A DNA stretch of 63,536 nucleotides, the filler included, from an uncultured Methanosarcinales archaeon (GTDB taxonomy: Archaea; Nanobdellota; Nanobdellia; Woesearchaeales; CAXGTL01): NCBI GenBank assembly GCA_964535955.1. It is 6 parts of 6 records of this genome, joined end to end, with 100 filler letters (N's around TTAATTAATTAA, not from the genome) between each part and the next. Parts side by side here need not be neighbours in the genome. Positions count along the whole stretch, not along the records: positions 1 to 23,194 come from CAZHVK010000018.1; 5 more parts are not named here. One strand, written 5' to 3'. Both the position numbers and the translations under genes were made by a program. The notes below the pieces were generated by a model. The model did not search any database. It was not told the origin of the DNA and saw only the letters and a program-made list of their open reading frames with translations. Below are positions 1-54,429 of the stretch, one piece after another (the stretch's first letter is position 1; every line of letters starts with the position of its first letter).

Positions 1-3000
1 CCGCATTGATTATCATCAGTACATGTTCTTGTTTGTAAACCATCAATACAATCATTCCATGAACCACATTCCCAATCTTCAACACAACATTCTTGTTCTT
101 CTTCAGGTTTATTTTCTATTGTGCCACATTTATTAAAGTCAAAACATGCTCTTGTTTGTGAACTATTTTCACATTCAGTCCAATCACCGCAGAGCCAGTC
201 TTCTATACAACCTTCAACAGTTATTAACATTGATTCAGTATCTTCTCCACCTTTTGAATCAGTTACTGTGAATGTGGCATTATGTATACCATAATCCTGA
301 TTATTAGGACTCCATTTATATGTTTGTGATATTGTTGAATAATCTGCTGGTGACCCAGAACCAGTACCACTTACAAAAGGAATTAATTTATCAAAATCAG
401 ATGCAATATCCATAGAATCTTTATCATAATCTTTTGCACTAATAATTACTGTTAATTCTTCACCTACTTCAACACTTTTATCTTCAATAGGATCAAAGAT
501 AGGATCTTGGTTAACATCCCTTACTTCTATCACAAAACTCTCTGTTACTTGCGAATCACCATCATCTAACATAAATTCAATTGTATAATTTCCTGCATCA
601 TCATAACCAGGTGTCCATTCAAAGATGCACATTGCTTGTGTCTTACCTGTTTCTTTAGTTTCATTAATACTATATTCACAATCATGAAGAATAGCTCCTT
701 GTGGTCCATTAACCAAACTCATCTCAAAGTCAGTTTCATCATCATCATCAAATGCAAAAAATGGCATCCATATTGGTTGATTTTCTTCCCACCAGAAATC
801 TTCAACATCATCCATTCTAGGTTCTCTGTTTATATTATTGATTGTTAATGCAAACTCCTCTATCACACTCACATAAGGATCACTAACAGTAACTGTTAGA
901 TTATATATACCAGCATTTTCATAATCTGTCTGCCATGTGATTTCACCATCACTATCTATGTCCATTCCAATAGGATCAGATTCTAGAGCATAAGTAAGAG
1001 TATCATCATCAGGATCTTCTGCATCAACTTTATATAAAAATAATTCATTTTCATCAACAGATAAACTATTGATTTTAAAATTATCATAATCTATATGCCC
1101 AACTCCATTGTGTCCTGTCCTTGTTGATACACCAAACTTAAATGGTGGTGAAATTTCATTTGAAGTATAACTAAATTTTTCATTATTAGGATTTATAAAA
1201 TTTACATTTACAGAATCATTTTGAAAAATTAATTTTACTTGATATGTTCCATAAATATTACCTACAGCACTTTCCCCATTCCAAAAACCAACATTTCCAC
1301 AAGTAGCATGACCATTACAAACGTTTCCTAACATAAGATCTAAAGGATTGTTATTAATAGTTAGTCTGCTTAAAATATTTCCATCACCTTCTAAATAATT
1401 AACTTCATATTCAATTATATCTCCACTTTCAAAATCGTGATCCATGCTTAATAGAATTACTTTATTTGATGGTGATAATTGAGCAGTATGATAAACATCT
1501 TTATTTAAATCAACATAATGTTCATCAACAAATGGCCAGTTTTCATGATCAGTTGTTTCATCCCAGAAATCAGTATCTAAATCATTATCAAAGTTTTCAG
1601 ATAGTCTAAATTTTGTATTGATAATTGGCTCTCTATTAACATCCCTTACTTCTATCACAAAACTCTCTGTTACTTGCGAATCATTATCACTTAACATAAA
1701 TTCAATAGTATGATTACCAGCAGAATCATAATCAGGAGTCCATTCAAATATGCACGATGCTTGTGTCTTATCTGTTTCTTTGCTCTCATTGATACTATAT
1801 TCACAATTACCAAAAACAGCATCTTCTGGTCCATTAACCATTGTCATTTCAAGATCTTGTTCAATATCATCATCAAATGCAAAAAATGGCATCCATATTG
1901 GTTGATTTTCTTCCCACCAGAAATCTTCAACATCATCCATTCTAGGTTCTCTGTTTATATTATTGATTGTTAATATAAATGATCTTCCATCACTAAAATT
2001 CCCATCACTTGCAGATACAATGATAATATATTCATCACTATCCTCATAACCAGTTTCCCACCTAAACAAACTTTCATCAACTTGATCCTGTACAAAATTC
2101 TCATTATCTACAGAATAAGTCAAAGTATCATTATCTGGATCATGAACCTCAATGATGTGTTCAGATTCAATACTTAAACCACCAGGACCGCCACCAATTG
2201 AACCACCCCCTTCTGCAGGAGGAACATCCAACACATTAAATTTTAATAAAACAACATCAGTCTCATCAACTGTGATGTCTTCAACAATTCCAACAATTGG
2301 TGCCCTGTTAGTTGTTATTGAATTAAATATAACTGAGGATGGTGCATGGGCAAGAGAACCTTCGTAAATAAAATCAATATCATCTTCTTCCTCACTAGAT
2401 GTAAAGTATAACATATTGCCTATGCTATCATAATAATACCCAAGATCATAGATAATTTCATCATCAGATTGAGATGTTTTTGTAGCAGAAGTTAACCTGT
2501 CCAAATCATCATATTCATAATCAATCTGTTCATCATGAATTTCATCATTAATAATCACAATATTATTTTTTGCATCCAAGTCATAGTTTAAATCCTGCAG
2601 ATCAGAAGTACTAATTCTATTTATCTTATAATTATCAGGATTATATTCATAATTAGATGTCAAAGCATTCTCATAAACCCTTGAAACCAATTGATTATCT
2701 TCATTATACTGTTGATCTGAAACAACATCACTTACAGTCTTAATATTTCCAACATTATCATATGTGTAATCAATAATTTCTCCATTAGGAAGTGTCTTTG
2801 ACAACACAGCATCAGCAGAGTCATAAGTATAAGTTGTAACAAAATCAATGCCATTGATAGTTTTCTTGTCTTCAACAATCCTCAACCTTTGATCATAAGT
2901 GAACTCTTTGACAATATCATTAGTCTCTATTTTTGATAAAGTACCTACAACACCTGCATCATATCTATAAGATTCTGATATAGACCCTACTGTTTTGGTT

Positions 3001-6000
3001 TTTAACCTATCTAGTTCATCATATGATAACTCTATTTGATTACCTTTATTATCTGCCTGCTTTACAAGATTACCTGATGCATCATATTCATAAGTCCAAA
3101 TACCAAGGTCTGGATCATCCATCATTGTTTTTCTACCTAAAGTATCATAATTATAATCAAACTCATTACCTTGACTATCATTGATCTTAATAAGATTACC
3201 AACAACATCATAAGTGTAATAAGTATCAAATATGTTTCCTTTGTTATATTCCCTAACATTGACAACATTTCCAAAAAGATCTTCAATATAATCAATCCTA
3301 TGGTCATTTTCATCAAAGAAAGAAGTTAATTGTCTAAAACGATCTATCTCAACATTTGTATTATCAGGATTAATAATCTTTTTAACCTTGCCAAGAGCAT
3401 CATATTCATAATTAGTTTTTTTGACCTGGGAATTAGGTGAAGAATAACTATTACTAGACATCAGATAAGGGTTTGATTCCCATTTCAGACCGCCAACAAG
3501 ATTATAATAAAAATCCTTAGTAATATGATCAGATCCTGAGGAATCAGATTTAATTTGCACAACATTTCCAGAACCATCATAATAATAATGTTGTTCTGAT
3601 ACCATATCATCATTTTGTTTTTGTTTTACAATTACTGATTCTGGTACATTTCCATCTAGATTATAGACTATTTCACTGGTAGGTTTTGATTCTGTATCGT
3701 AAGGTAAGATATCTTTTATTTTTCTGCCAAATTGGTCATATTTGTATTCTGTTTTATATCCATTAGGATCTGTTGCAGACAACACATTGCCTGTTGCAAG
3801 ATTATATTCAAAAACCATTTCCTGATCCTTAGCATTTGTTGTTTTTATTGGAAATGTATGTGTTGAGTCATACTCATATTCTGTTGTTTTTCTTCTTGCA
3901 TTTGTTTCTGAAACTCTATTCCCATATGCATCATATCCATAAGTCATGACAGGATTTTCTCCAGTATCTAACCAAGACTCAGACCTTATCAAGTCACCTA
4001 ATTCATTATACTCAAAATAAGATTCTGACACTTTTGTTGAATCATCTGAACTTCTTAAATATGTTTTTGTTGGTATATTAAGTATCCATTTATCAGTATC
4101 ATAAGTATATTCTGTATAAGAATATCTTTCATCATCATCTACAGAAATTTCACCCAACATAGAAGTCTTTTCCACATTACCATAATCATCATATTCATAA
4201 TCAGTTTGAGTTATTACTGGATTTTCTGCAACACCATCATAATTATAATTCTTTGTTGAATCTAGAGTAACTACATGATAACCATTAGTGGTTGTTGAAG
4301 ATGCTTCATTCTCATTTTTAAAATAAGGCCTGTTTTTATCGTCAAACATTTCTGTCTTATATTCCATACCTTTTTTAGAATCATCCTGGTGATAATAATG
4401 TTTTACTTTGCTATTATCGGGTCTTAATTCTTCAACATAACCAAAACCTCTAAATTCTTTATCACCAAAATCATAATAACCACCTGTATAAGTATAAAAA
4501 GTTTTAATTGATGGTGTTTTTGAACATACTTGATTACTGCTACCAGACACAACCATATCAGCTTTCCATACATGCATGCTAGCTGAAGTACCACTTTTAA
4601 AATCAACATAATCATTTAATGCAGGGCCTGTTGTTTGAGCTTTGCAAGCACCATTTTCATCATCAGGATTGCCAGGTTCATAACCATCTTCTACATCAGG
4701 TATCGCATAAAAACTATATCTCCAAGTATTTCCATAACATTCTGTTGTACATGTTGAATAACCAGAACATCCTTTTTCAGGAGGCATACAATAACCTATC
4801 CAAGTTCCACCAATATTGTCTGCAGATTCATAATCATTACCAGAGTCTTTATCATCAATCAAATAATGATTATTTTTTCTTAACAAACCATGTGCATCAC
4901 TTCCACAATCCCCACCCCAAGGTTGCTCACTTAGACCAGACATCTCCCAATATAAAACAATAACAGCATCTGTTTCAGAAGTGTCTTCATCATAAATTCT
5001 ACTTTCATCAACAATATTATCATCAGACGAAGTCTCAACCTTATAACATTTACCATCTTCAAATCCAGTTGAAAACAAAGGCATACCTATTGCATCCTGA
5101 GGAAGATCATAATTAGACCAAGGATTAGTACTTTCCATTACTTTAGTCCAATCACCGCAAGATCTTATTTCACAGATTCTTACACAAGCATCATCACCAG
5201 AACAATCTATTCCTTTATCATCATACCCATTAGGACAAGAAGCAGGAACACAGTCTATGTTAGAGTTCACATCATGATGATCTAACATATCAACCAATGA
5301 GATAGATTTAACAATCCATTGATTAAACCCTATCTTATTATTCTCTGTTTCACCAGAATTAAAATATTCTATCTTATGTTTTGCACCTGCAGAATTTTTT
5401 ACTTCATCTAATAAAAACTGCTTGTTTGCTTTATTCAGCCACACTAGTTTAGTTATTGAACCAGAATTACTTTTCATTCTTACAATGTCTGCAGAACCAT
5501 CGCCATTTATATCAACCATCCTTGTGCCTTCATTACTTCCATCATTCATTACAAACTCAGCAAACTCAGGAATGTCCCATGAAGAATCTGACACAAGATT
5601 ATTACCATGATTTATAAAAGCTGCTCTTGTTGTTTCTCTTCCTTGCAGTACATCTGCTAACCCATCACCATTAATGTCTGAAAACCTTATACCTTCATCA
5701 TCATTACCAGCATCCACATTATCTGGCAGGTTACTAATTGGCCAGCTACTTGTTTGCTCCCAACCATTACCAGTATTCAACCATAATTCTTTGCTATAAT
5801 CATCATCAGACCTATAAACATCTGTCAATCCATCACCATTCATGTCAATCAACCTGACACCTTCATCATCACCATCTGATTCAATAAAATAAATATTTGA
5901 AGGTAAGTTCCAATTACTTGCACTTGACCAGCCACCATTCTGATTATTGATCCATGCTTGTTTACTTTGTCCTTGTTTTGCTTTCAAAACATCAACATAA

Positions 6001-7439
6001 CCATCACCATTAAGATCAACCAACCTTACACCTTCATCAACATATTTATAATTATTACTATTGTCCTCTATAGTTACAAATTTAGTTACAAAATCATGAG
6101 ATGACAAACTCCAACCATTTCCAGTATTTGTCCAGATATCATAATCTTCATCATCAGCATCTTCATCATAAACTCCTTGTATAAGATCAGGATAACCATC
6201 ACCATTATAATCTCCTAACCTAACACCCATATCAAAAAATATATTGGTATCGTATCTATCTATAAATTTTGCAGGAGGTGCAAAAGTATCATCCCTATTA
6301 AAATCACCATTAAACAAATTTAAAAAAGCATATTTACCAGCCCAAACATGATGAAAATTTGCAACTATATCAACCATTCCATCTCGATTTATATCAATTA
6401 ATCTTGAACCACCGTCCAGATTATTATAAGAAAAATATGCAGGAGGTAATTTATTTTCAATATCTCTATCTCTTTCCCAGCCTTTTTCAAGGTTTGTGTA
6501 TGAAAATGTTGTAGAAGGTAATGATCCGCCATCTTTACCATATTCTGTTATTGACGAGATATATGTCCTAGTTGCAATATTATTATTAGTATAACCAATA
6601 CCATATTTTCTAATCATAGTATTATCATAATATATCCTTATCTCAGTTAATCTACTCTTTCTTGTTATTTTTTGTCCGCCTTGAAATATTGTCCAAGATC
6701 TAGGAAGAGCAACATAACCAAACTCTATTCTTCTTTTCTTATCATTATTATATTCAATCTTATGGATATAAGTTACACCTGTTTCACCAGAAGAAGGATC
6801 TTCCAAATAAGAATAATAAATATTATTATCATGAGTGTCTGTTACCTGATCAAGATACCATCTCCAAACATAATTGTGCTGGTTTGACATGAGTTCTGAA
6901 TCAGAATCATAACCAAACCTATATGTTGTTCCATCTTTTGTCTTAACTTCCCAATATTCATTTTTAGTATTGTCTCCTCCTGATAATTTTTTAATTGAAA
7001 GATAAGACTCAATTTTGGTATGATATCTTCCATCAGTTGAATCATAGACAAGTTCATGTGACGCACCACTTAATATAAGGTTAAACTTATGTTTAGAAGT
7101 GTCACCAGGAAAATCATTAGTATCTCTTTGTATATAAGATTGTGTTAATGCCCAACCACTACCTACTAATTCAGGGTATGACTTTGAGTTAAGACTACTA
7201 TAACTTAAACTTAAACCAGGTTGCAGACCATTTGTGCCGGGCATAACCTGAATAGGATAAGAATAAACAGCTGCACCAGTATTAATATTAGCAGACAATA
7301 ATCCTGATGAAGGCAATGATGCTGGAGAACTTGGTTTATTAATATAATCTCTATAAGGATCTGCTGATGTGAAACAACTCAAACTAATCAAGATTAATAT
7401 AAAGATTACAAGTGTTTTTGATTGGTTGTTTTGTTTCAT
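1..7439 (-). CDS. Giant secreted SpvB/FG-GAP/YD-repeat (TcB-RHS-like) shell protein, cassette B; runs off left edge (about 2479 codons visible)
   Basis: Missing from the ORF track because no stop lies in the window. ATG at 7439 overlaps the upstream TGA (ATGA). Reads MKQNNQSKTLVIFILILISLSCFTSADPY (signal peptide), then NTGAAVYSYPIQVMPGTNGLQPGLSLSY (SpvB-type N-terminus), DxNGDG FG-GAP repeats, YTGGYYDFGDKEFRGF, and YD repeats ending YDSIGNML...LAHAP near 2340. These are followed by cadherin/Ig-like and CxEDWxC repeats. Frame at base 1 agrees with the start. Paralog of 11430..18515. Confidence 0.9.
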   Translation of the reverse strand, partial: MKQNNQSKTLVIFILILISLSCFTSADPYRDYINKPSSPASLPSSGLLSANINTGAAVYSYPIQVMPGTNGLQPGLSLSYSSLNSKSYPELVGSGWALTQSYIQRDTNDFPGDTSKHKFNLILSGASHELVYDSTDGRYHTKIESYLSIKKLSGGDNTKNEYWEVKTKDGTTYRFGYDSDSELMSNQHNYVWRWYLDQVTDTHDNNIYYSYLEDPSSGETGVTYIHKIEYNNDKKRRIEFGYVALPRSWTIFQGGQKITRKSRLTEIRIYYDNTMIRKYGIGYTNNNIATRTYISSITEYGKDGGSLPSTTFSYTNLEKGWERDRDIENKLPPAYFSYNNLDGGSRLIDINRDGMVDIVANFHHVWAGKYAFLNLFNGDFNRDDTFAPPAKFIDRYDTNIFFDMGVRLGDYNGDGYPDLIQGVYDEDADDEDYDIWTNTGNGWSLSSHDFVTKFVTIEDNSNNYKYVDEGVRLVDLNGDGYVDVLKAKQGQSKQAWINNQNGGWSSASNWNLPSNIYFIESDGDDEGVRLIDMNGDGLTDVYRSDDDYSKELWLNTGNGWEQTSSWPISNLPDNVDAGNDDEGIRFSDINGDGLADVLQGRETTRAAFINHGNNLVSDSSWDIPEFAEFVMNDGSNEGTRMVDINGDGSADIVRMKSNSGSITKLVWLNKANKQFLLDEVKNSAGAKHKIEYFNSGETENNKIGFNQWIVKSISLVDMLDHHDVNSNIDCVPASCPNGYDDKGIDCSGDDACVRICEIRSCGDWTKVMESTNPWSNYDLPQDAIGMPLFSTGFEDGKCYKVETSSDDNIVDESRIYDEDTSETDAVIVLYWEMSGLSEQPWGGDCGSDAHGLLRKNNHYLIDDKDSGNDYESADNIGGTWIGYCMPPEKGCSGYSTCTTECYGNTWRYSFYAIPDVEDGYEPGNPDDENGACKAQTTGPALNDYVDFKSGTSASMHVWKADMVVSGSSNQVCSKTPSIKTFYTYTGGYYDFGDKEFRGFGYVEELRPDNSKVKHYYHQDDSKKGMEYKTEMFDDKNRPYFKNENEASSTTTNGYHVVTLDSTKNYNYDGVAENPVITQTDYEYDDYGNVEKTSMLGEISVDDDERYSYTEYTYDTDKWILNIPTKTYLRSSDDSTKVSESYFEYNELGDLIRSESWLDTGENPVMTYGYDAYGNRVSETNARRKTTEYEYDSTHTFPIKTTNAKDQEMVFEYNLATGNVLSATDPNGYKTEYKYDQFGRKIKDILPYDTESKPTSEIVYNLDGNVPESVIVKQKQNDDMVSEQHYYYDGSGNVVQIKSDSSGSDHITKDFYYNLVGGLKWESNPYLMSSNSYSSPNSQVKKTNYEYDALGKVKKIINPDNTNVEIDRFRQLTSFFDENDHRIDYIEDLFGNVVNVREYNKGNIFDTYYTYDVVGNLIKINDSQGNEFDYNYDTLGRKTMMDDPDLGIWTYEYDASGNLVKQADNKGNQIELSYDELDRLKTKTVGSISESYRYDAGVVGTLSKIETNDIVKEFTYDQRLRIVEDKKTINGIDFVTTYTYDSADAVLSKTLPNGEIIDYTYDNVGNIKTVSDVVSDQQYNEDNQLVSRVYENALTSNYEYNPDNYKINRISTSDLQDLNYDLDAKNNIVIINDEIHDEQIDYEYDDLDRLTSATKTSQSDDEIIYDLGYYYDSIGNMLYFTSSEEEDDIDFIYEGSLAHAPSSVIFNSITTNRAPIVGIVEDITVDETDVVLLKFNVLDVPPAEGGGSIGGGPGGLSIESEHIIEVHDPDNDTLTYSVDNENFVQDQVDESLFRWETGYEDSDEYIIIVSASDGNFSDGRSFILTINNINREPRMDDVEDFWWEENQPIWMPFFAFDDDIEQDLEMTMVNGPEDAVFGNCEYSINESKETDKTQASCIFEWTPDYDSAGNHTIEFMLSDNDSQVTESFVIEVRDVNREPIINTKFRLSENFDNDLDTDFWDETTDHENWPFVDEHYVDLNKDVYHTAQLSPSNKVILLSMDHDFESGDIIEYEVNYLEGDGNILSRLTINNNPLDLMLGNVCNGHATCGNVGFWNGESAVGNIYGTYQVKLIFQNDSVNVNFINPNNEKFSYTSNEISPPFKFGVSTRTGHNGVGHIDYDNFKINSLSVDENELFLYKVDAEDPDDDTLTYALESDPIGMDIDSDGEITWQTDYENAGIYNLTVTVSDPYVSVIEEFALTINNINREPRMDDVEDFWWEENQPIWMPFFAFDDDDETDFEMSLVNGPQGAILHDCEYSINETKETGKTQAMCIFEWTPGYDDAGNYTIEFMLDDGDSQVTESFVIEVRDVNQDPIFDPIEDKSVEVGEELTVIISAKDYDKDSMDIASDFDKLIPFVSGTGSGSPADYSTISQTYKWSPNNQDYGIHNATFTVTDSKGGEDTESMLITVEGCIEDWLCGDWTECENSSQTRACFDFNKCGTIENKPEEEQECCVEDWECGSWNDCIDGLQTRTCTDDNQC
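511..849. repeat. 339-bp intragenic direct repeat, copy 1 (duplicated Ig/cadherin-like domain)
   Basis: Aligns without gaps to 1636..1974 (offset 1125); 511-558 and 741-849 identical, middle diverged. Confidence 0.9.
1636..1974. repeat. 339-bp intragenic direct repeat, copy 2
   Basis: Partner of 511..849. Confidence 0.9.
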
Positions 7440-10162: not shown

Positions 10163-10262
10163 CTTTCCACCCCAAACATCTAAAACCCTACTTTAATGCA
10201 ATATTTCAAACTTAATAAACTTTACGATTCAAACCATTGAATAATCACAGACTTCGTGTAAT

Positions 10263-11252
10263 TTATTCATGATTTGATGATATTGATTGTGATTCCCTAT
10301 ACTGTTTAACATGTTCCAGTACTGCTGCTTCTCCAAGCCTATATATTTCCTCTGATACTTTTAATATTTGGATAACAGGTTTTAAACCAGATCTTACAGC
10401 TTGTTTTAAATCTTCATCTTGCCTTATAATATCAGCAATCTCTGGACTATGTTTATAATAAAAGTCAACTAAGTCTTTACCAATTGGATTTGGTAGCAAA
10501 CATTCATCTCTAAATCTACAAAGATATTTAACTTCTTCAGCCATAGCAGTTCCATATGCAGCAGTTGCTATAAAACAACCTCCACCACCAGCAGAAGTAG
10601 AACTACCAGTGCCAGGTGTACCACCTGTACTAGTATCAACACCCCAAGCACTTGCCTGAGTATCATAAGCAGCAACAATCTCATTACCAGTCATACCATT
10701 AGACATATCAAACATTACACATTCAGGAATTCCATTTTTTTCATTTGATTCACTTATATTTTTATAAAAATTCCTGATAGCAACATTATCACATCTTACA
10801 GAAAATAATATTCCATCTTGATCATCTGTTTGATTTTGTTCATTAGAATTATGAAACATGAAATAAATTGTATCTGTTTGTCCAGTATTCTTATCCTCAT
10901 AAGACATCAAAGCGGTAGGCACCATCATACCCAAATCTTGAACATTATCCAAGTCTAACACATTATGACCTTCTGCATATGGTGTTCTATCAGGTCCATT
11001 TATAGTCAATGTAATGCCTTTTGCTTGCTCAAGATAAGCAATAGCTTCATTTACATAATTAATATCAGTGTCCTGCTTCATATCTACCATTGATGGCTTA
11101 TTTGCTTTCCCAAACACATAATTCTTTAACATATCTTTAGCACTTGGCTGTGTATTTGCAGGAGCACCTGTTAATATAGTATATAATAATACACTTCCTC
11201 CAAATAAAGTCAAAGCAATTTGATTCAAACTTGTTTTCATATTTCCTAACAT
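10263..11252 (-). CDS. Exported protein with CFI-box-CTERM domain
   Basis: N-terminal hydrophobic segment; Gly/Ser/Thr linker, then GGGGCFIATAAYGT...LCRFRDECL...FYYKHSPEIADII. Start could be 11240. Confidence 0.85.
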   Translation of the reverse strand: MLGNMKTSLNQIALTLFGGSVLLYTILTGAPANTQPSAKDMLKNYVFGKANKPSMVDMKQDTDINYVNEAIAYLEQAKGITLTINGPDRTPYAEGHNVLDLDNVQDLGMMVPTALMSYEDKNTGQTDTIYFMFHNSNEQNQTDDQDGILFSVRCDNVAIRNFYKNISESNEKNGIPECVMFDMSNGMTGNEIVAAYDTQASAWGVDTSTGGTPGTGSSTSAGGGGCFIATAAYGTAMAEEVKYLCRFRDECLLPNPIGKDLVDFYYKHSPEIADIIRQDEDLKQAVRSGLKPVIQILKVSEEIYRLGEAAVLEHVKQYRESQSISSNHE

Positions 11253-11429
11253 TATAACATCCCTCGCATAGTATTTATATTAATAATATTGTATTTATAT
11301 AATAAATTCTATTATTTAAATACATTACCACCCCAACACCGTGATTTTCATGTATGGTAGAAATAGAGCTTAATAAAGATTAGGGTAATTATAATCCCTG
11401 TTTTAGAATATACACATTACACAATACAA

Positions 11430-14400
11430 TCAAACACTCACACCCAATTCCCCAACATTATTACTTTCATCCTTTTCCTTGACTAAGTTATCAGGATCAA
11501 CAGTAAGAACCATTGTATAACTACCAGGATTATCATAATTACCAGTTGAATACACATTTGCTGATTGGTCAGGCCTTAATGTTAATGATTCTGTACTTGA
11601 AGGATCTGATGTAGCACCGCCTGTGTCAAGCTCCCACCCAACATTTTCTGCAACAGCATCACCACTATTCTTTATCTTGAACTTGACAACAACAATATTG
11701 CCAAAATAAGTTTTTACTCCAAAATCTTCAACAACAAGATCAGGTTTTAAATTAGGCACAGAAATAAACTCGCAAACAGCATTACATGTTCTTGCATTTC
11801 TACACATATCATAAGTATTATCATCATTATCATCACAATCAGAATTTCTCATACACTCCATATTACATGATGAACTTTGTTTATTTTTACAGTATGAGTT
11901 ACATGTTTTTGCTAAGAAACAAATATCTTTGGTATTAGACTTTCCATCATCGCAATCAGAATTACTTTCACATTTCACATTACATGGTTTATTCTGACAC
12001 TTTGCATTGCACTTGCCTGGGTTGATGCAATAATCTTTTGTAGATGAAACATAATCATTACAATCAGAATCAGTGTTACAAGCAATATTACATTTATCAA
12101 GATCTTCAATAACTAAAAACTCTTCTGTTGCAGGATCATAATCATAATTAAATCCTCTACCAGTTCCAAAACTACATTCACATTCATAAATACTATCATC
12201 TTTACTACATTGTGTATGATACTCATCATCTCCAGTTCTAAAACTGCATGAATCACCACAACTAAGAACTCGTTCATCAAAATAATAACTTTGTTCTATG
12301 TTATCATAATCTTTTGCCTTGATCTTGACAGGCACACGTTCATCAAACACAATCTTAAACAAAGCATATGGATTTGCATACTTCTGTTTTTTACCAAACT
12401 TAACAACCGAATTAATCAACTCACCTGTATCATCATCTTCTACACCAATCTTCAACTTATAATCAGGTCCAGAATTTTCATTAATAACAACATCAATATC
12501 CTGTGAATCAGTCAAACCATTTGAATCTTTTAATGTCAGTGTTAATGTAACTGTTCCATGTTTATCTTCAACAGGATAAAACCTCAGGACATCTGTATTA
12601 GAGTTAAGAGAAAATTGTACAATCTTTCTAAGTTCAGCAATTATATCAGCTGTATAATCACCTAAACCTTCAATCTCTTTAAATTCTACTTTCCACCTTA
12701 ATTTCCTACCACTGTCTTGAGCATCATTTTCATAGTCAGTCAGATCAATCATCCATGGTTCAGAATTCATATCCACTTCTTGATTAGGCACATCAGGTGA
12801 AATATATGGTGGTGTATTACCAGCAATATCATTTACAGTGATTTTCATTTCTTCATAATCTTTTGCACCTCTTAGATCTGTAACAGTAAACAAAACATTA
12901 TAAATCCCAGCATCATCTAATCCAGGCTGCCATCTATACTTTCTTCTAATTTCATTACCATAATCATAGTTTTCTGCTGTTTGTAATTGAGAAAAATTAT
13001 TTGTTAATGTCAATTCATCATCTTTATCTTCATCACTTGCTCTTACCCAAATATCTAATATTTGATTTTCATCTATTTCTCTATCATCAATTTCTTCAAA
13101 AACAGGAGGATTGTTTGGCATTATACATTCTTGTTCTTCTTCTGGCTTTTGTTCCATTGTACCACACTGATTATCATCAGTACATATTCTTGATTGTAAA
13201 CTATCATCACATTCAGGCCAATCACTACAAGTCCAATCTTCAGAACAACATTCTTGTGATATTTGTGGTTTATGTTTTGTTGTGTCGCACTGATTAAGAT
13301 CAGAACAAGATCTAGTTTGTTGTCCACCTATACACTCTGACCATTGTGTGCATTGCCAGTTTTCTGTACAGGGAATCCCCTGAGAATTTGTTATTATTTG
13401 TGTTGGTGTATGAGCTAAATTATCATATAAGAATTCTATGTTTCCATCATCAGCATACAAATAAAGCATATTACCAATACTATCATATTCATATGATAAA
13501 TCGTATAATAGATTGTCATTACCATACCTTATTTTCTGAGCCTTTATTAATCTATCAAGATCATCATATTCAAATTCTTCTTTACCATTATGAACAAGGT
13601 CTTCGATTAACATAACATTTCCTACATTATCATATGTATAAGCTAAGCTTTGAACACCACTAGTTATTATATTACTTACTCTATAATTTAATTGATTGTA
13701 ATAATAATTATTTTTTAAATTATTTTTAAAAGTCCTCGCAACAGGCATATTCATTACATTATATCTTATATCTGTAATTATATCATTAACATTTTCAAGT
13801 CTACCAACAGAATCATATGTATAAACAATAGTTTCATTATTTGGTAGGATTTCTTTTGTTATTTGATCCATAGTATTATATTCATACACTGTCAGAAAGT
13901 TTAGATTATCTATTTTTCTTTTATCTTTTATGATTCTATATCTTTGGTCATAATCAAATTCTTTAGTAATGTCATTTGTTTGGATTTTTGATAAAGTCCC
14001 AAGAGTATTAAGATCGTAAGTATATGTTTCTAATGTATCTGCTGAGGTTTTTGTTTTTAATCTATATAATTCATCATATGTTAATGTTACTTGATTATTT
14101 TCATTGTCTATTTGTTTAATTAAGTTTCCTGACACATCATATTCATATATCCAAGTACCTAAGTCAGGATCTTCTAATTTTGTTTTTCTTCCTAATGAAT
14201 CATATGTATGTTTTATTTTATTATTCTCATTATCTGTTATTTGTATTAGATTTCCTCTTGTGTCGTATTTATAATTTGTAGTATATATTTCATCATTGTC
14301 ATATTCTTTGATTTGTATTATGTTTCCATAAGCATCTTTTAAATAATCAATCCTATTATCATTTTCATCATATAATTCTGTTAAGTAATATTTATGTTTA

Positions 14401-17400
14401 CTTACTATCTTTCCTTGATCAGGCTTTACTACCCAAAATATTCTGTCTAAAGTATCATAGAAATATCTTGTTTTAGCAACTGCACTCCTGATTCCCACAT
14501 AATCTTCTGTATCAGAATAATAGAAATTTGTTTCATAATTTAACCTGTATAAATTATCATAATAATAATCTTTTGTTATAAACTTTTGATCAGAAGTTTC
14601 TGTTTTTGTTTGCATAACATTCCCAATTCCATCATAATAATAATAACTATCCAAGGTACTATCTTCACTTTGTTTTTGCTTAACTATTGCTCTTTCTGGT
14701 AAAGATCCATCAAAATCATAGATTATTTCTTTTGAAGGTTTATCTTCTGTATCATAAGGCAAGATTTCTTTTATTCTTCTACTAAATTGATCATATTTAT
14801 ATTCTGTTTTATAATTATTAGGATCTGTTACAGACAACAAATTACCAGTTCCAAAATCATATTCAGATATTGTTTCATGATTTTTTACATTTATTGATTT
14901 TATTGGAAAAGTATGTGTTGAATCATATTCATATTCTAATGTGTTTTGATTAGAATCTGTTACTGAAATTTGATTTCCGTATGAATCATATTCATAAGTT
15001 GTTGTTGGATTTTGTCCTGTACTTAACCAGGATTCAGATTTAACTAGGCTACCATATTCATCATATGTAAAATAAGATTCTGAGACTTTTGTTGAATCAT
15101 CTGAACCTTTTACATAAGTTTTTGTTGGCCTATTTAAGATCCATTTATTGGTGTCATAAGTGTATTCATTATATGAATACTTTTCATCACCACTTATTGA
15201 TGTATCACCTAAGTATGATGTCTTTACTATGTTGTTATAATCATCATATTGAAAATTTATTTGTGTAGTTACTGGATTATTATCCTTGAATTCTGTAAGA
15301 ATTTCTTTTGTTGAATCTAATTTTACTGTGTAGTAATCATTATTTTTTATTGAGAAAAAATCATTTTCTGTTGTTTTAGATATACCTCCATATGACACCT
15401 CTGTTTTATATTCCATTCCATTTTTTGCATAATCTTGGTGAAACCAATGATGTATTGTTCTGTCACTAGGTTTTATTTCCTTTACATAATTAAATCCTCT
15501 GAACTCTTTATCTTCATAATCATATAATCCTCCTTCGTAGGAATAGACTGTTTGTAAACTTTTTATTTTTTGACATGTTTGATGATTTGTTGATGTTATT
15601 GTTAATGGTGCACTACTAATTATCATTCCTACATCTCTATTGCTCTTAAAGTCAATATATTCTGTATCTGCATAATATGAAGAAGTTCTTGATTTACATG
15701 CTCCTTTGTTATCATCAGGATCTAAGGGTTCATAGTCCTGGGGCATGTCTGGTACAGCCACTATCTCAAATGACCATGTATTTCCATAACATTCAGTTGT
15801 GCATGGTTCTGTAAAACCTGAGCATCCTTTTGAAGGGGGTATGCAATTACCACTCCATCTTCCACCTAATCTATCTGCAGTATTATAGTCTTCACCATTA
15901 TCTGAATCATCTATTAGATAATAATAACGTCTATTTAGAACTGAGCCTGTTGAATCAGGTTCACAGTTTCCACCCCAAGGCTGTTGGTCATGATCTGACA
16001 TTTCCCAGTACAGTGCAAGCACTGAATCAGTTTCATATCTATCTTCATAATCTATGTCACTATCATCTACTATGTTATCATCTGACCATGTAGCAACACT
16101 ATAACATATGTCTTCTTCAAAATTAGAATAATTAAATAATGGTACACTGTATGCATGCCTTTCAAAATCATATTCATTCCAAGAATTCTCTTGTTCAAAA
16201 ATAGTACTCCATTGACCACTGCATCCCATCTTCACACATTTTCTTTGACAAACACTGCTTGATGAAGTACAATCAATTCCTGTATCTTGATAACCATAAG
16301 GACAAGATGAAGGAACACAATCTAAAGAAGTTGCTGTACTATGATGCTCTGTTGCATCTAGATAATTAATAGCCAAAACTATCCATTGATTAAAACCCAT
16401 ATCATTATCAGGTGTTATTGCAGAATTGTAATATCTTATCTTGAACTGACCTCCACTAGGCAAGTTTACTTCATCTAATAAGAATTGTTGTTGTGCTTTA
16501 TTTTTCCAAGCAAGTTTAAAATTTCCACCTTCACGTTTTATTCTAACAATATCTACTGAACCATCACCATCAATATCAGCTAATCTTGTACCCTCATTAT
16601 TACCATTACTCATTACAAACTCTGCAAATTCTGGTACTTCCCATGATGAATCATATGTAAATTTCTCTCCTTGGTTTAAATATGTGTCTCTTCTAGATGA
16701 TCTAGCAAGAACAAAGTCTGGCAACCCATCACCATTAATATCTGATATCCTCATGCCTTCATCATCATTAGATGTATCAACATTATCTGGTAAAATATTT
16801 ATTGGCCAATCATTTGTTTCTTCCCACCCATTTCCTGTGTTTAACCATAAATTTTTATTATCCTTATCATCAGATCTGTACACATCTGTTAAACCATCAC
16901 CATTTATATCAATTAATCTTACTCCTTCATCATCTCCATCTGATTCTACAAAATATATATCTGATGGTAGTTTCCATTGACTTGAACTTGACCAACCACC
17001 ATTTTGATTATTAATCCATGCTTTTTTACTATCTCTATCTTTTGCTTTTAGAACATCAACATAACCATCACCATTTAAATCAACTAATCTTACCCCTTCA
17101 TCAACAGATTTGTATGGATGCTCTTCTGCAGTTGTAAAGATTGTTACAAAATCATCATTTGTTTTTCTCCAACCACTACCAGTGTTTTCCCAAATATAAT
17201 CATATTCATCATCACCATCTTCATCATACAATCCTTGAATTAAATCAGGATAACCATCTCCATTATAATCACCGATTCTTACACCAGAATCAATAGGTGT
17301 GTCATCATATTTTAATATGAATGCAGCAGTTTCTGGAGGTTCATATGAACTGTCGATTGTAAAATCTGTTTTATATGAATTAATGTATGCTGTTTGTTCA

Positions 17401-18515
17401 ACATTCTTATAATCTGAGTTACGCAATATGTCTGTTATTCCGTCTCTATTTATATCTATTAATCTTGAACCACCGTCTGCGCCATTATGTGAAAAATAAG
17501 CACTACTAGGCAGTTTTTGTTCAAGATCTTCATCTCTTTCCCAACCTTTTTCAAAATCTTTATAAGAAAAAGTTGTAGCAGGCAATGATCCTCCATCTTT
17601 ACCATATTCTGTTATGGATGAAATATATGTTCTTGTAGTAACATAATTATTTGTATAACCTATTGCATATTTTTTTATTAAATTGTCATTTGCATAAGTT
17701 TTTATTTCACTTAATCTTCTAGTTCTTTTTATCTTTTGTCCATCTTGAAATATTGTCCATGATCTTGGAAGAGAATTATAACTAAATTTTATTTTTCTTG
17801 TTTTATCATTATTATATTCTATCTTATCTAGATATGTTACACCGGTTTCATAAGAGTAAGGGTTTTCTTTATAGGTATAAAATATTTTATTTCCATGCAC
17901 ATCTATTACTTGATCAAGATACCATCTCCAAATATAATTATGTTGATTAGATTTAAGTTCTGAATCTAAGTTATAACCAAACAAATATCTTGTTCCATCT
18001 TTTGACTTTACTTCCCAATATTCATTCTGATCATTATTTCCACCTGATAATTTTTTTATTGACAAATATGACTCTATTGTTGTATGATATCTTCCATCAG
18101 ACGAATCATAAACAAGTTCGTGTGATGCACCATCAAGTATCAAATTAAATTTATGTTTAGATGTGTCAGAAGGGAAATTATCTGTGTCTCTTTGAACATA
18201 AGATTGTGTTAATGACCATCCACTTCCTGTTAGTTCTGGGTAACTGTTTTTATTATAACTACTATAACCCAAATTTAAACCTGGTTGTAAACCATTCGTT
18301 CCTGGTGGAACCATAAATGGATAAGAATAAACAGCTGCGCCTGTATTAGTACTTGTTGTTAGTGTGCCTGATGACGGCAATGATGCAGGACTTGTTGGTT
18401 TGTTTATGTTTGATTTGTATGGATCTGCTGATGTAAGTGAAGCTATGATAAATATGAGCAATAAAATAAATACAAGTTTTTTTATTGTTTTTGTTTGATT
18501 TTGATTATTTTTCAT
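11430..18515 (-). CDS. Giant secreted SpvB/FG-GAP/YD-repeat shell protein, cassette A, 2361 aa, with C-terminal Cys-rich, cadherin/Ig-like and CARDB-like domains and no RHS core
   Basis: Signal peptide; TGAAVYSYPFMVPPGTNGLQP; WRWYLDQVIDVHGN; multiple DING/DLNGDG repeats; YEGGLYDYEDKEFRGF; many YxYD repeats ending YDSIGNML...LAHTP; final KPDLVV...VDPDNLVKEKDESNN (CARDB-like). No PxxxxDPxG motif. Confidence 0.92.
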   Translation of the reverse strand: MKNNQNQTKTIKKLVFILLLIFIIASLTSADPYKSNINKPTSPASLPSSGTLTTSTNTGAAVYSYPFMVPPGTNGLQPGLNLGYSSYNKNSYPELTGSGWSLTQSYVQRDTDNFPSDTSKHKFNLILDGASHELVYDSSDGRYHTTIESYLSIKKLSGGNNDQNEYWEVKSKDGTRYLFGYNLDSELKSNQHNYIWRWYLDQVIDVHGNKIFYTYKENPYSYETGVTYLDKIEYNNDKTRKIKFSYNSLPRSWTIFQDGQKIKRTRRLSEIKTYANDNLIKKYAIGYTNNYVTTRTYISSITEYGKDGGSLPATTFSYKDFEKGWERDEDLEQKLPSSAYFSHNGADGGSRLIDINRDGITDILRNSDYKNVEQTAYINSYKTDFTIDSSYEPPETAAFILKYDDTPIDSGVRIGDYNGDGYPDLIQGLYDEDGDDEYDYIWENTGSGWRKTNDDFVTIFTTAEEHPYKSVDEGVRLVDLNGDGYVDVLKAKDRDSKKAWINNQNGGWSSSSQWKLPSDIYFVESDGDDEGVRLIDINGDGLTDVYRSDDKDNKNLWLNTGNGWEETNDWPINILPDNVDTSNDDEGMRISDINGDGLPDFVLARSSRRDTYLNQGEKFTYDSSWEVPEFAEFVMSNGNNEGTRLADIDGDGSVDIVRIKREGGNFKLAWKNKAQQQFLLDEVNLPSGGQFKIRYYNSAITPDNDMGFNQWIVLAINYLDATEHHSTATSLDCVPSSCPYGYQDTGIDCTSSSSVCQRKCVKMGCSGQWSTIFEQENSWNEYDFERHAYSVPLFNYSNFEEDICYSVATWSDDNIVDDSDIDYEDRYETDSVLALYWEMSDHDQQPWGGNCEPDSTGSVLNRRYYYLIDDSDNGEDYNTADRLGGRWSGNCIPPSKGCSGFTEPCTTECYGNTWSFEIVAVPDMPQDYEPLDPDDNKGACKSRTSSYYADTEYIDFKSNRDVGMIISSAPLTITSTNHQTCQKIKSLQTVYSYEGGLYDYEDKEFRGFNYVKEIKPSDRTIHHWFHQDYAKNGMEYKTEVSYGGISKTTENDFFSIKNNDYYTVKLDSTKEILTEFKDNNPVTTQINFQYDDYNNIVKTSYLGDTSISGDEKYSYNEYTYDTNKWILNRPTKTYVKGSDDSTKVSESYFTYDEYGSLVKSESWLSTGQNPTTTYEYDSYGNQISVTDSNQNTLEYEYDSTHTFPIKSINVKNHETISEYDFGTGNLLSVTDPNNYKTEYKYDQFSRRIKEILPYDTEDKPSKEIIYDFDGSLPERAIVKQKQSEDSTLDSYYYYDGIGNVMQTKTETSDQKFITKDYYYDNLYRLNYETNFYYSDTEDYVGIRSAVAKTRYFYDTLDRIFWVVKPDQGKIVSKHKYYLTELYDENDNRIDYLKDAYGNIIQIKEYDNDEIYTTNYKYDTRGNLIQITDNENNKIKHTYDSLGRKTKLEDPDLGTWIYEYDVSGNLIKQIDNENNQVTLTYDELYRLKTKTSADTLETYTYDLNTLGTLSKIQTNDITKEFDYDQRYRIIKDKRKIDNLNFLTVYEYNTMDQITKEILPNNETIVYTYDSVGRLENVNDIITDIRYNVMNMPVARTFKNNLKNNYYYNQLNYRVSNIITSGVQSLAYTYDNVGNVMLIEDLVHNGKEEFEYDDLDRLIKAQKIRYGNDNLLYDLSYEYDSIGNMLYLYADDGNIEFLYDNLAHTPTQIITNSQGIPCTENWQCTQWSECIGGQQTRSCSDLNQCDTTKHKPQISQECCSEDWTCSDWPECDDSLQSRICTDDNQCGTMEQKPEEEQECIMPNNPPVFEEIDDREIDENQILDIWVRASDEDKDDELTLTNNFSQLQTAENYDYGNEIRRKYRWQPGLDDAGIYNVLFTVTDLRGAKDYEEMKITVNDIAGNTPPYISPDVPNQEVDMNSEPWMIDLTDYENDAQDSGRKLRWKVEFKEIEGLGDYTADIIAELRKIVQFSLNSNTDVLRFYPVEDKHGTVTLTLTLKDSNGLTDSQDIDVVINENSGPDYKLKIGVEDDDTGELINSVVKFGKKQKYANPYALFKIVFDERVPVKIKAKDYDNIEQSYYFDERVLSCGDSCSFRTGDDEYHTQCSKDDSIYECECSFGTGRGFNYDYDPATEEFLVIEDLDKCNIACNTDSDCNDYVSSTKDYCINPGKCNAKCQNKPCNVKCESNSDCDDGKSNTKDICFLAKTCNSYCKNKQSSSCNMECMRNSDCDDNDDNTYDMCRNARTCNAVCEFISVPNLKPDLVVEDFGVKTYFGNIVVVKFKIKNSGDAVAENVGWELDTGGATSDPSSTESLTLRPDQSANVYSTGNYDNPGSYTMVLTVDPDNLVKEKDESNNVGELGVSV

Positions 18516-18522
18516 TTTGTTA

Positions 18523-19086
18523 TTAGCTTTTCATTTTGTTTAATGATTCTTTTGCAATTTTGCCTATTAGTGGTTCTGTGAATTGGAGATAATTTTTAAG
18601 ATTTTGAAGTTTTTCATTAACTTGATTAAATCTGATATGTCCTAATGCAGAAATTATACTACTAATTAGTGTAATGTCTTTTGTGTTTTTATAATTGATT
18701 TTATCTTCGCTTTTAATGAAATCATTATAATAATATTTATCTAGAATTCTCTCCAAATATGTACCACAACCTATTATGTTTAAGTGTTCTATAATCCCTA
18801 TTATTGGTATAAGTCTTTGAGGTTGGTTTAAATTATTAATTAATAATTCTTTAATAAATATTGTTGTACTTTTATCTTTTTTATTCATTAGAGTTCTAAT
18901 CAACACATTAAAAACTTGGTGATCAAGACTATTTTTAGTTAATAAGATTTTTATTTCATTTTGATATTCATTTTTTGAAATTTCTTTGAAAATTTCTTTT
19001 AATTCATTACCCTTAGTAGTTTTATTTCTAGTAAGAACATGTTTCAATTCATTTACTAATTCAATAAATTTTTTTTGTTTGTTCAT
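18523..19086 (-). CDS. Putative immunity protein (cytoplasmic, HEAT-repeat-like)
   Basis: Starts 2 bp after the toxin stop; no signal peptide; helical SIISALGHI...EPLIGKIAKESLNKM pattern. Role inferred from position. Confidence 0.6.
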   Translation of the reverse strand: MNKQKKFIELVNELKHVLTRNKTTKGNELKEIFKEISKNEYQNEIKILLTKNSLDHQVFNVLIRTLMNKKDKSTTIFIKELLINNLNQPQRLIPIIGIIEHLNIIGCGTYLERILDKYYYNDFIKSEDKINYKNTKDITLISSIISALGHIRFNQVNEKLQNLKNYLQFTEPLIGKIAKESLNKMKS

Positions 19087-19088
19087 TT

Positions 19089-20624
19089 TTATCTTAAATC
19101 ATTAATTAAATTATCTAATTTAAATGTTGCTTTGTTATACACGCTTAGTTCATAAGGCGTTAGTGGAATTTCTTTAGGTACAATATGAGTAACATCTGCA
19201 GTGACTGTGTTTTTATTATAGACTAAACTTGACCGAGCAGTTCTTCTCATACCATTCATAACTATCTCTCTGCCATGTAAATTCCAAACTTCAGTTGCCT
19301 CGGGGATATTGTTTAAACCTACTTCATAACCTCTGGTTTCCATTACTGCTTGTTTATCAAGCAATGGATGTGTTCCTCTTAATCGCTTTATAGGAATCTC
19401 TTGAGTACCTGTGCCTTTAACCTTATTTGAAGAAGATCCTCCACTACTAGCACCACCAAAAACAGCAGGTGTTCCTGTTATTGCAGCATGAGCTAAACCT
19501 ACTGAGCCTACACCTAAACCTATTGCACCACCTACTTGCGCACCAGTTGAAGTAGCTTCAAGTAAATTCTCAGTTATTGGAGCACCAGACATAACATTGC
19601 TTGTTGCTTGAGCAGCAGCACTACCCATTGCAGATGATGCAGCATAAGTTGAAGTGGTTCCTGCAAGATATCCAACCCCTGTGGCTCCGGTAAATACTGG
19701 CGAAACAATTCCAAATGTTGCAGCTCCCACTGCTCCTGCAGCTCCACCAATTAATGCACTTTTTCCAACTGCTCCCCAGTCCATTGAACTATCAAATAAA
19801 GAAGCACCATTGTATATTTGTTTTATAACTGAATAACCAGCACCAATTACTGCTCCAATTGCAGCACCAAATAATATGTGCCAGAAATGGCCTGTACTAT
19901 CTACATATTTAACAGGATTATTCCTTGCATAACTATATCTATTCAATGATTGAGGATCATAAACATCAGGAATCGTTGTATCAGGCTGTGTAAAATGTCT
20001 TAAAAAAGGAGAATAGTAACGAGCATTATAATACATTAATGATGATTCTTTATCTTTTTCTTGTCCTGTGAATGTATATCTTGATTCTCCGCCTTCTAAT
20101 GGTAAACCAAATGGTTTGTAAGTAGTTTCTTCAATTACTTCACCATCTTCATCTGTTACAATATGAGTGCTACCTAGATGATTAGGGTGATAGAATTTTA
20201 TATTATCATTATAATCTTTTTCTGCAGCTAAAGAAGATCCTTCATAATAAAAGATTGTATCTCTTTCTTGATTAGAATCTTTTTCTTTTATGAATCTACT
20301 AGAAACATAATATGTTGTCTTAGAATTACCATTTTGGCTATATAAAACTTTTTTTATTCTTTGACCAGATTCATCATAATAGTATTTTGATAATGTTCTT
20401 CCATTTACATTATTTTCTTTTACTTCAACTAATTGATTAAGCGAATTATAAACATAATATTCACCAACACCTAAAACAAGGTTGCCATTATCATCATATT
20501 CAAAATTGATTGTTTTTTGTTGATTTGCTGTTGTCTCTAAAGACTGTGCAAATGATAGAGGTACACATAAGACAAGTAAAATAAGAAATACTGCTATTAA
20601 ATTCAAAATTTTGTTTTTATTCAA
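19089..20624 (-). CDS. Secreted minimal RHS-core polymorphic toxin, cassette A, with divergent ParB-like tip
   Basis: TTG 20624 after a GGGGGTG RBS gives a signal peptide; then FEYDDNGNLV, YHPNHLGST, YYNARYYSP, NNPVKYVDSTG; Gly/Ala-rich hydrophobic segment; tip EIPIKRL...EIVMNGMRRTA. Confidence 0.88.
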   Translation of the reverse strand: MNKNKILNLIAVFLILLVLCVPLSFAQSLETTANQQKTINFEYDDNGNLVLGVGEYYVYNSLNQLVEVKENNVNGRTLSKYYYDESGQRIKKVLYSQNGNSKTTYYVSSRFIKEKDSNQERDTIFYYEGSSLAAEKDYNDNIKFYHPNHLGSTHIVTDEDGEVIEETTYKPFGLPLEGGESRYTFTGQEKDKESSLMYYNARYYSPFLRHFTQPDTTIPDVYDPQSLNRYSYARNNPVKYVDSTGHFWHILFGAAIGAVIGAGYSVIKQIYNGASLFDSSMDWGAVGKSALIGGAAGAVGAATFGIVSPVFTGATGVGYLAGTTSTYAASSAMGSAAAQATSNVMSGAPITENLLEATSTGAQVGGAIGLGVGSVGLAHAAITGTPAVFGGASSGGSSSNKVKGTGTQEIPIKRLRGTHPLLDKQAVMETRGYEVGLNNIPEATEVWNLHGREIVMNGMRRTARSSLVYNKNTVTADVTHIVPKEIPLTPYELSVYNKATFKLDNLINDLR

Positions 20625-37439: not shown

Positions 37440-37539
37440 NNNNNNNNNNNNNNNNNNNNNNNNNNNNNNNNNNNNNNNNNNNNTTAATTAATTAANNNNN
37501 NNNNNNNNNNNNNNNNNNNNNNNNNNNNNNNNNNNNNNN

Positions 37540-46144: not shown

Positions 46145-46567
46145 GGTTCTGTTATGGATAGTGTTGTGATTATCAGAGAGTATGGTGCAGATGATGTTTA
46201 TGTTTTTGATCCAAAGATTCCTGCTAGATTTAATTCTTTAAAGACAATTGTAGGTGGTAAAGCTTATCAAGTAAAGATGAAGAATGGTGCTGAATTGGTG
46301 ATAAGTGGAACATCTTTCACTAAAACAAGTGTATCGCTCCACAAAGGCTGGAACATGATGCCTTACTTAGGTAGTGGTGTGCTTGGTATTGATGATGTAA
46401 TTGGATCTGTAAAAGACAATATTGTTATTATCAGAGAATATGGTGCTGATGATGTTTTTGTTTATGATCCAAAGATTCCTGCTCGTTTTAATTCTTTGAA
46501 AGAGTTTCAACCAGAGACAGGTTATCAAGTGAAGATGAAGGATGTTGGTGAGGTGGATTTTGGTTGA
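46145..46567 (+). CDS. C-terminal fragment of a surface protein carrying the tandem LHKGWN module
   Basis: Open from the gap; two IIREY...YDPKIPARFNSLK...YQVKM repeats. Confidence 0.85.
   Translation, partial: GSVMDSVVIIREYGADDVYVFDPKIPARFNSLKTIVGGKAYQVKMKNGAELVISGTSFTKTSVSLHKGWNMMPYLGSGVLGIDDVIGSVKDNIVIIREYGADDVFVYDPKIPARFNSLKEFQPETGYQVKMKDVGEVDFG
46340..46554. repeat. 215-bp exact repeat shared by surface-protein 3' ends
   Basis: Identical to the reverse complement of 61258-61472. Confidence 0.9.
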
Positions 46568-46582
46568 TGAATGCAGGTGATT

Positions 46583-54022: not shown

Positions 54023-54122
54023 NNNNNNNNNNNNNNNNNNNNNNNNNNNNNNNNNNNNNNNNNNNNTTAATTAATTAANNNNNNNNNNNNNNNNNNNNNN
54101 NNNNNNNNNNNNNNNNNNNNNN

Positions 54123-54429
54123 CATCAATACCAAGCACACCACTACCTAAGTAAGGCATCATGTTCCAGCCTTTGTGAAGATTTATTTTTTTATTATCAA
54201 ACTCTGCACCACTAATTGTTAATTCAACAGAATCCTTCATCTTTACTTGATAAGCTTTACCACCACTAATTGTTTTCAAAGAATTAAATCTAGCAGGAAT
54301 CTTTGGATCAAAAACATAAACATCATCTGCACCATACTCTCTGATAATCACAACACTATCCATAACAGATGCAAGTACTTTGTCAATCTCAACAACATCA
54401 GGCTCAATAGTCAAAGGCATAACATTCCA
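54123..54429. repeat. 307-bp exact direct repeat shared by surface-protein 3' ends
   Basis: Identical to 61418-61724. Confidence 0.9.

Follow-up and report, generated by a model that had tools for sequence, protein, structure and literature searches.

The RHS cocoons known so far are built from one chain or from a TcB+TcC pair. Here we describe a 63,536-nucleotide stretch of DNA from an uncultured archaeon of the order Woesearchaeales (assembly GCA_964535955.1; "the window"), in which two tandem cassettes, A and B, each carry a giant "shell" gene and a small "cartridge" gene that together hold the parts of one RHS toxin. It is likely, in our judgment, that the two chains make a single cocoon, a polymorphic toxin of the SpvB/FG-GAP/RHS type whose chain has been divided at a late surface loop of the YD spiral.

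In domain content the archaeal system is like the single-chain 'TcdB/TcaC'-type toxins (Zhang et al. 2012), in which signal peptide, SpvB, integrin-like propeller, RHS repeats, core and tip are accompanied by an immunity gene (PMC3482391). The signal peptide, SpvB and integrin-like propeller are all present, but the archaeal system is encoded by two genes, with a second signal peptide, and not as a single polypeptide. A two-chain precedent is the TcB+TcC pair, which is made by co-expression in one cell, and in which one TcB packages several TcC, including one from a distant locus (e.g. YenB with YenC1/C2/C3; PMC11067744). The archaeal genes resemble this pair in providing two chains for what is likely one RHS cocoon, one with SpvB, propeller and TcdB_midN and the other with core and variable tip. 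However, TcC has 851-1050 amino acids (aa) with a conserved N-terminal part of ~680 aa (PMC7861908), whereas the cartridge has only ~210 aa before its cleavage site; residues 124-245 of cartridge B align to TccC2 541-663, and the archaeal cut falls several hundred residues later than the TcB/TcC boundary. Further differences from TcB+TcC are the signal peptides on both chains, the adhesin-like domains at the cut, the immunity-like genes after the tips, and the hosts, which are DPANN archaea and a few bacteria. Judged by its sequence, with a later cut and export signals on both chains, the shell/cartridge system is not a Tc toxin.

Two other relatives share parts of this design. Mosquito SGS1 (PDB 8fjp; PMC9935623) combines a TcA-independent YD shell, into whose repeats receptor-like domains are inserted, with a hydrophobic C-terminal moiety after the core, and bacterial teneurin-like proteins (TLPs; PMC13018210) have a Sec-exported shell, adhesion domains and polymorphic toxic C-termini. 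As described in those papers both are single chains, unlike the archaeal pair, and the N-terminus of TLPs is FN-plug/NHL instead of SpvB/FG-GAP. The first-pass annotation of the window had noted no TcA or type VI secretion system (T6SS) genes in it. In the whole genome, profiles for the T6SS partners VgrG (PF05954) and PAAR (PF05488) found nothing and matched in controls, while a TcA profile (PF18276) was also without match, but the control genomes were silent too. Full-text literature searches, supplements not included, gave no description of the shell/cartridge split. Archaeal polymorphic toxins have reportedly been treated by Makarova et al. (mBio, 2019), which may bear on novelty.

Shell and cartridge genes

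The window joins several contigs through runs of N (23195-23294, 37440-37539, 46045-46144, 54023-54122 and 61744-61843), and the shell/cartridge finding is confined to positions 1-23194, which correspond to C18, one of 31 contigs in a genome of 1.49 Mb. All cassette open reading frames (ORFs) were recovered on the minus strand of this part, in the transcription order cartridge B, a 187-aa gene, shell B, a CFI-box-CTERM gene, cartridge A and shell A. A third cassette lies on contig C2 (cartridge, 157-aa gene, second cartridge, 3013-aa shell), so that the genome totals four cartridges and three full shells; no intact full-length RHS gene was found in it. For comparison we collected 60 regions, taken from the best matches and not at random, and added the two loci of the genome itself, which gave 37 shells and 52 scorable cartridges.

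Shell B (11430..18515, minus strand, 2361 aa) consists of a signal peptide, an SpvB-like N-terminus, an FG-GAP propeller, TcdB_midN with a ~260-aa Cys-rich insert, YD repeats and a Cys-rich/immunoglobulin (Ig)/PKD/CARDB tail; the 650-aa adhesin-like tail (11430..13382, minus) matches Big_9, PKD_4, He_PIG and CARDB, and no membrane anchor was found in the protein. Shell A (<1..7439, minus, >2479 aa) has the same anatomy and is open at the end of C18; its YD series ends with LAHAP at residue ~2348, followed by an Ig-type tail. Shell A matched the profiles SpvB, FG-GAP, TcdB_toxin_midN and RHS_repeat, and shell B matched the last three, with Pfam SpvB below scoring. The two proteins are 58% identical across 1721 aa, including the shell B N-terminus, and diverge afterwards. 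In both, the YD series closes at YDSIGNML...LAH[AT]P and gives way to Ig-type domains (Big_9, He_PIG, PKD, CARDB), and neither matched the RHS core profile TIGR03696. The earlier description of two giants with SpvB, FG-GAP and YD repeats, a common stop, Ig tails and no core is thus upheld in every part, with the SpvB region of shell B recognized by alignment and not by Pfam. Across the comparison set, the YD series closes at H-[ASTG]-[PAV] in 33 of 37 shells, a hydrophobicity rule finds a signal-like segment in 34 of 35, and a C-terminal anchor was seen in none of 34. The adhesin-like domains at the split site are of Ig, PKD, CARDB, laminin-G, CBM and PA14 types. SecY is present in the genome.

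Both cartridges exceed the cut-off for TIGR03696, and the succession of YD repeats and RHS core is obtained only from the shell and cartridge genes together. Cartridge B (19089..20624, minus, 511 aa) comprises a signal peptide (residues 1-26), the last YD strands, the RHS core, a Gly/Ala-rich hydrophobic segment and a predicted ParB/sulfiredoxin-fold tip; it starts at a TTG at 20624, downstream of GGGGGTG, and its database record likewise has 511 aa. Cartridge A (7436..10162, minus, ~908 aa from a probable ATT start) has a signal peptide, a ~410-aa Cys-rich extension ahead of the YD entry, the core, a hydrophobic segment and a ParB-like tip. The YD entries read FEYDDNGNL in B and LVYDGNGNL in A, and the cores end at PVKYVDSTG and PVKYSDPSG, respectively; the DPxG after which autocleavage had been expected is therefore lacking in cartridge B, whose core ends in DSTG. 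The ATG of cartridge A at 10102 falls within its signal peptide, which is complete only from the in-frame ATT at 10162 (GGGGTG upstream), so a non-canonical start is needed; its homolog P0001 begins with an ordinary signal peptide. The ATT sits just before a run of seven A, and such a start could lower the expression of cartridge A relative to the other cartridges. Small proteins with their own signal peptide, YD entry and core are thus present as first proposed, except that cartridge A requires the ATT start and carries the long Cys-rich extension.

The stop of cartridge A overlaps the start of shell A (ATGA, 7439-7436). Contigs of sequencing runs X3 and X4 span this junction with 0 differences, so the overlap is not an assembly error, and a contig of run X5 covers 9915-11733, which includes the region of the ATT start, also with 0 differences; the three runs are not flagged as the source of the assembly and belong to two studies that may be one campaign.

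Cartridges join the YD series at an invariant D-x-x-G-N, a few residues past the signal-like segment or past an N-terminal extension. Most have 400-520 aa, with a conserved part of ~210 aa. All 53 aligned sequences keep the core residues R167, D180 and D207. An Arg/Asp/Asp autoprotease has been described for Tc and SGS1 (PMC9935623) and, by these residues, the cartridge core is predicted to be one as well.

Beyond the predicted autocleavage site the cargo is 166-268 aa long in 51 of 52 cartridges. The tips fall into 40 clusters among the 52, which is the hypervariable C-terminal toxin domain that marks RHS polymorphic toxins. A Pfam toxin family scored above cut-off in four of 53 cargos (colicin D, barnase-type RNase in two, Ntox47) and more weakly in three others (colicin D, Ntox24, ParB); most tips have no Pfam match. 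The cargo of cartridge B is its C-terminal ~263 aa (19092..19880, minus). A model of its tip (predicted local distance difference test, pLDDT, 77) gave Noc/ParB/Srx as best Foldseek rows at E 1.8e-3 and no match at E≤0.001; a homolog search returned only the tip itself, and the ESM Atlas, where recognition was low, only unnamed clusters. The tip of cartridge A has a ParB-like GHHR motif (SQGHHR), with ParB_N at E 0.0046, below cut-off. ParB-fold toxin tips have been listed before, with uncertain activity (PMC3482391).

A small gene follows 42 of the 52 cartridges. In cassette B it is the 187-aa gene (18523..19086, minus), an all-helical solenoid whose homolog in L071 (E 1e-7) stands behind a cartridge of related tip and which we regard as a putative immunity protein; in Foldseek it gave only weak helical-repeat rows and no PDB match at E≤0.001. 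The 157-aa protein on C2 has a homolog behind L069, so in two cases the immunity-like genes track tip type.

Fit of the two halves

Interaction, tiling and neighbourhood, the three points on which the first-pass annotation had staked the pairing, were all examined. For the tiling, 59 longer homologs were compared with profiles of the shell end and the cartridge: 25 mapped cleanly, five had no shell match, and 29 mapped partially and were not counted. In 22 of the 25, the shell and cartridge parts are separated by a linker of 1-12 residues, and in the other three by an insert of 396-466 residues at the split site. The halves are complementary, with neither gap nor overlap, and the late split point that had been proposed is supported. 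Natural fusions with inserts at the same site also exist (L069 and L099), the one in L069 being ~650 aa long with laminin-G-like domains. Because inserts occur there, the split site is most likely a surface loop that tolerates insertions.

The interaction foreseen for the cassette B pair is also predicted. In a model of the shell B YD part (731 aa) with cartridge B (214 aa), the interface score ipSAE is 0.89, against 0.01 for the best of three controls, with 250-256 contacts, at least 98% contact agreement between runs and a partner pLDDT of at least 89. Of 157 solved complexes, 116 reached the mark used, as did two of 215 mismatched pairs; this calibration is only roughly valid for the alignments used here. 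The modelled interface includes the last strand of the shell (residues 720-730) and the first residues of the cartridge (1-12): the split point of shell B (13383..13412, minus), made of its H-T-P motif and last strand, touches cartridge residues 1-12. The surest contacts join shell residues 419-433 and 653-700 to core residues 187-203. Two halves of one split gene tend to pass such a comparison through their likeness to solved shells, so the model shows fit, not binding.

Occurrence, pairing and history

We searched 401 genomes of the order with the N-terminal part of the cartridge and the YD part of the shell; the tallies include the genome itself and one unpublished genome (G445, positive for both), and kin are not independent. 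Cartridge matches were found in 66 genomes and shell matches in 46, of which 45 also had a cartridge match. Since both queries hold YD repeats and kin are not independent, loci were checked directly. A shell lies within the examined stretch for 42 of the 52 cartridges, co-directional in every case and within 50 bp in 15, which for the most part bears out the expectation that the homologs are neighbours, though lone cartridges exist. The cartridge gene comes first in 26 of these pairs and the shell gene in 16, so that the upstream position of the small gene, correctly noted in the window, is not a rule. Distances among shells and among cartridges correlate (rho 0.64 over 32 loci, reached by 0 of 2000 permutations), as expected from plain co-inheritance. 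Cartridges outnumber shells in eight loci.

Contrary to the earlier suggestion, the shell is not constant: the three full shells of the genome are 51-54% identical in the YD part and have unlike tails. A fourth shell gene on C2 (L001:13777-18129, 1450 aa) ends within the YD series, with no H-x-P end and no tail. At the end of contig C7 there is an open-ended shell-type tail (L002:7845-10001), 59% identical to that of shell B; from its sequence it is probably the remainder of shell A, but the C7 end has no exact overlap with C18 and we therefore left the two unjoined. Adhesin-like domains fall to either chain: tail-less shells were paired with long-extension cartridges in five of five cases, versus three of 25 tailed shells (Fisher p 0.0004, kin not independent). 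The shell is thus the adhesin-bearing chain here, as first described, but not generally.

Woesearchaeota records account for several of the cartridge's best named relatives, and the closest intact homologs are in Methanosarcinales, Nitrospirota and others. Among 75 named loci, the split, again with a signal peptide, was seen in Nitrospirota (L097, L100, L104), in L107, in a Patescibacteria metagenome-assembled genome (MAG; L106) and in an Altiarchaeota MAG (L115), and intact genes occur in Methanosarcinales and most other bacteria. The arrangement is thus wider than the archaea to which it had been ascribed.

A tree of 84 shell-region rows, computed quickly under LG+G4 and unrooted, with six loci whose proteins were already included and four shells without the end motif left out, requires at least five changes between the split and the single-chain state. 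Most archaeal split forms make up one group in which the two fused proteins of L069 and L099 are nested, the Patescibacteria split is placed among insert-bearing single chains (99% support in the Shimodaira-Hasegawa-like approximate likelihood ratio test), and the Nitrospirota splits form their own branch. A single clade of all split forms was rejected (approximately unbiased test, p 0.00016), partly owing to the nested fusions. The likely origin would be an insertion of adhesin domains into a late YD loop, then fission within the insert. Locus L129, titled 'uncultured Methanosarcinales archaeon', sits deep in the clade of split forms from the window's order and apart from named Methanosarcina proteins, which could mean a mistaken title or a transferred locus.

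A second, more distant RHS family is cut at other points. In L042:1118-7963 and L185:4466-10864 it consists of three co-directional genes with signal-like N-termini, and similar three-piece arrangements occur in L046, L183, L184 and L187. The L042 pieces map to residues 1653-1972, 1972-2406 and 2420-2548 of a single-chain protein (L188:2435-10879). In L187 (3248-19143), six tandem cartridges of signal peptide, core and tip follow one two-piece shell, with no genes between them.

Proposed assembly and competing explanations

How could two separately exported chains make one toxin? In the proposed mechanism, the cartridge would complete the YD spiral with its final ~100 residues and bring in the core plug, closing the open end of the shell by continuation of its beta-sheet, as modelled. 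The exported cargo of ~170-270 aa would thread into the open cup before the lid closes, and the core would then cut behind D-x-x-G. Attachment of the particle to a target surface would fall to the Ig/PKD/CARDB/lectin domains that one or the other chain bears at the split site, and entry of the enzymatic tip into a microbial cell would be aided by the hydrophobic segment, the tips being of ParB/Srx fold here and of colicin D, barnase-type RNase, Ntox47 and Ntox24 types elsewhere. In genomes with surplus cartridges, one shell would take several cargos. Exchangeability, extracellular assembly and targeting are what we infer from these arrangements; full exchangeability with loading after export seems to us evenly poised between right and wrong. 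The two pieces most likely join outside the cell, which would allow one shell to carry different toxins. Two independently exported halves make it possible for cargo to be enclosed after secretion, which bears on how RHS shells load and open without TcA or T6SS, and the natural split lets the loading question be addressed with a 500-aa chain.

Several observations weigh against this reading. The H-x-P end is missing in four of 37 shells, a clearly hydrophobic segment is present in only 30 of 52 cargos, and ten of 52 cartridges, cartridge A included, have no small gene downstream. The signal-like segments, which 48 of 52 cartridges carry, were called by the hydrophobicity rule and not by a trained predictor. 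The complex was modelled without cargo, and its score may reflect likeness to solved RHS shells and not assembly in trans. Of the 66 cartridge-positive genomes, 21 have no shell match. When 13 cartridge-only genomes (12 of the 21 and G235 from the class sample) were retested with a shell profile that matched two positive controls, 12 were still empty, most of them fragmented. The lone cartridges of G235 and G570 read, from their sequence, as decay: in G235, a single-contig genome, a frameshift disrupts the barnase-type RNase-like tip of the lone cartridge (L038:8304-9580), which has no immunity gene after it, and G570 retains an SpvB remnant. The shell-less G350, G552 and G567 fall outside this explanation.

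The lone cartridges also speak for taking the two chains as independent proteins, a stand-alone secreted mini-RHS cartridge and an empty giant adhesin shell that are neighbours by descent only. The eight loci with surplus cartridges and the adhesin-like extensions that some cartridges bear point the same way. We nevertheless consider this improbable: only one of the 46 shell-positive genomes is without a cartridge match, both ends are fixed at complementary points in many families, adhesin domains sit on one chain or the other, the core is buried within the shell in the model, and the sole lone cartridge from a single-contig genome is the broken one. Still less probable, indeed hardly credible, is the view of cartridges as plain orphan RHS cassettes that stay silent until a recombination event joins them to a shell gene. 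Orphan cassettes are known in polymorphic toxin loci (PMC11067744) and are, like cartridges, short core-plus-tip genes with several per locus, and the fused L069 and L099 nest within split forms. But the true orphans that accompany some intact loci (Methanimicrococcus L103 and Methanolapillus L108) lack a signal peptide and overlap the main gene, with starts upstream of the H-A-P motif, whereas cartridges share no overlap with the shell for recombination, have one start point and carry signal peptides, and the genome is without an intact full-length gene.

Decayed or mis-assembled intact RHS genes we regard as virtually out of the question. Broken loci do exist (L054, L064 and L097), as does the shortened fourth shell, but the same split recurs in dozens of genomes and in both gene orders, with intact signal peptides and invariant catalytic residues, and junctions in the window are repeated in other runs; the earlier view that this is no simple nonsense or frameshift break was correct. 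Beside these, in four shortened single chains (L090:9241-11541, L124:849-3719, L128:1630-3387 and L143:446-5212) the cartridge part follows directly on an earlier YD repeat, which looks like the loss of a few hundred spiral residues.

A different question is what the cocoon is for. It could be real and yet serve attachment to or manipulation of host cells, teneurin- or SGS-like, instead of killing rival microbes, a possibility that is compatible with the two-chain cocoon and that we consider unlikely, though less so than the alternatives above. The heavy Ig/lectin content suits it, as do the nearest solved relative of cartridge B, mosquito SGS1 with its hydrophobic segment after the core (PMC9935623), the lack of immunity genes for cartridge A or between the six tandem cartridges of L187, and the many tips without Pfam match. 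Against it, the recognized tips are antimicrobial nucleases (colicin D, barnase-type RNase, Ntox47, Ntox24), and small genes follow most cartridges, two of them tracking tip type, which points to kin or near-kin as likely targets.

Taken at its widest, the two-chain reading would describe an undescribed, widespread class of toxins with two or three Sec-exported chains assembled outside the cell, a reusable shell loaded by several cartridges (up to six, in L187) and repeated loop fission, serving as a main antagonistic weapon of Woesearchaeota-like DPANN archaea, with lone cartridges perhaps using neighbours' shells; we would give this about even chances. DPANN archaea, usually viewed as minimal dependents, gain a common polymorphic toxin system (66 of 401 genomes) and many unclassified tips.

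The CFI-box-CTERM protein (NF041770; 10263..11252, minus) lies between the cassettes with its own upstream intergenic region, has no homolog elsewhere in the genome and is probably outside the toxin system. In other parts of the window, a repeated C-terminal domain with an L-H-K-G-W-N motif occurs at 46154..46567, 46571..53872, 54067..61248, 61245..61715 and 61893..63536, in giant secreted proteins (laminin-G, MopE-type Cys repeats) and in small ORFs; it is possibly a surface-sorting domain. The shells of L035 and L057 have a comparable W-N-L stretch after the split point.

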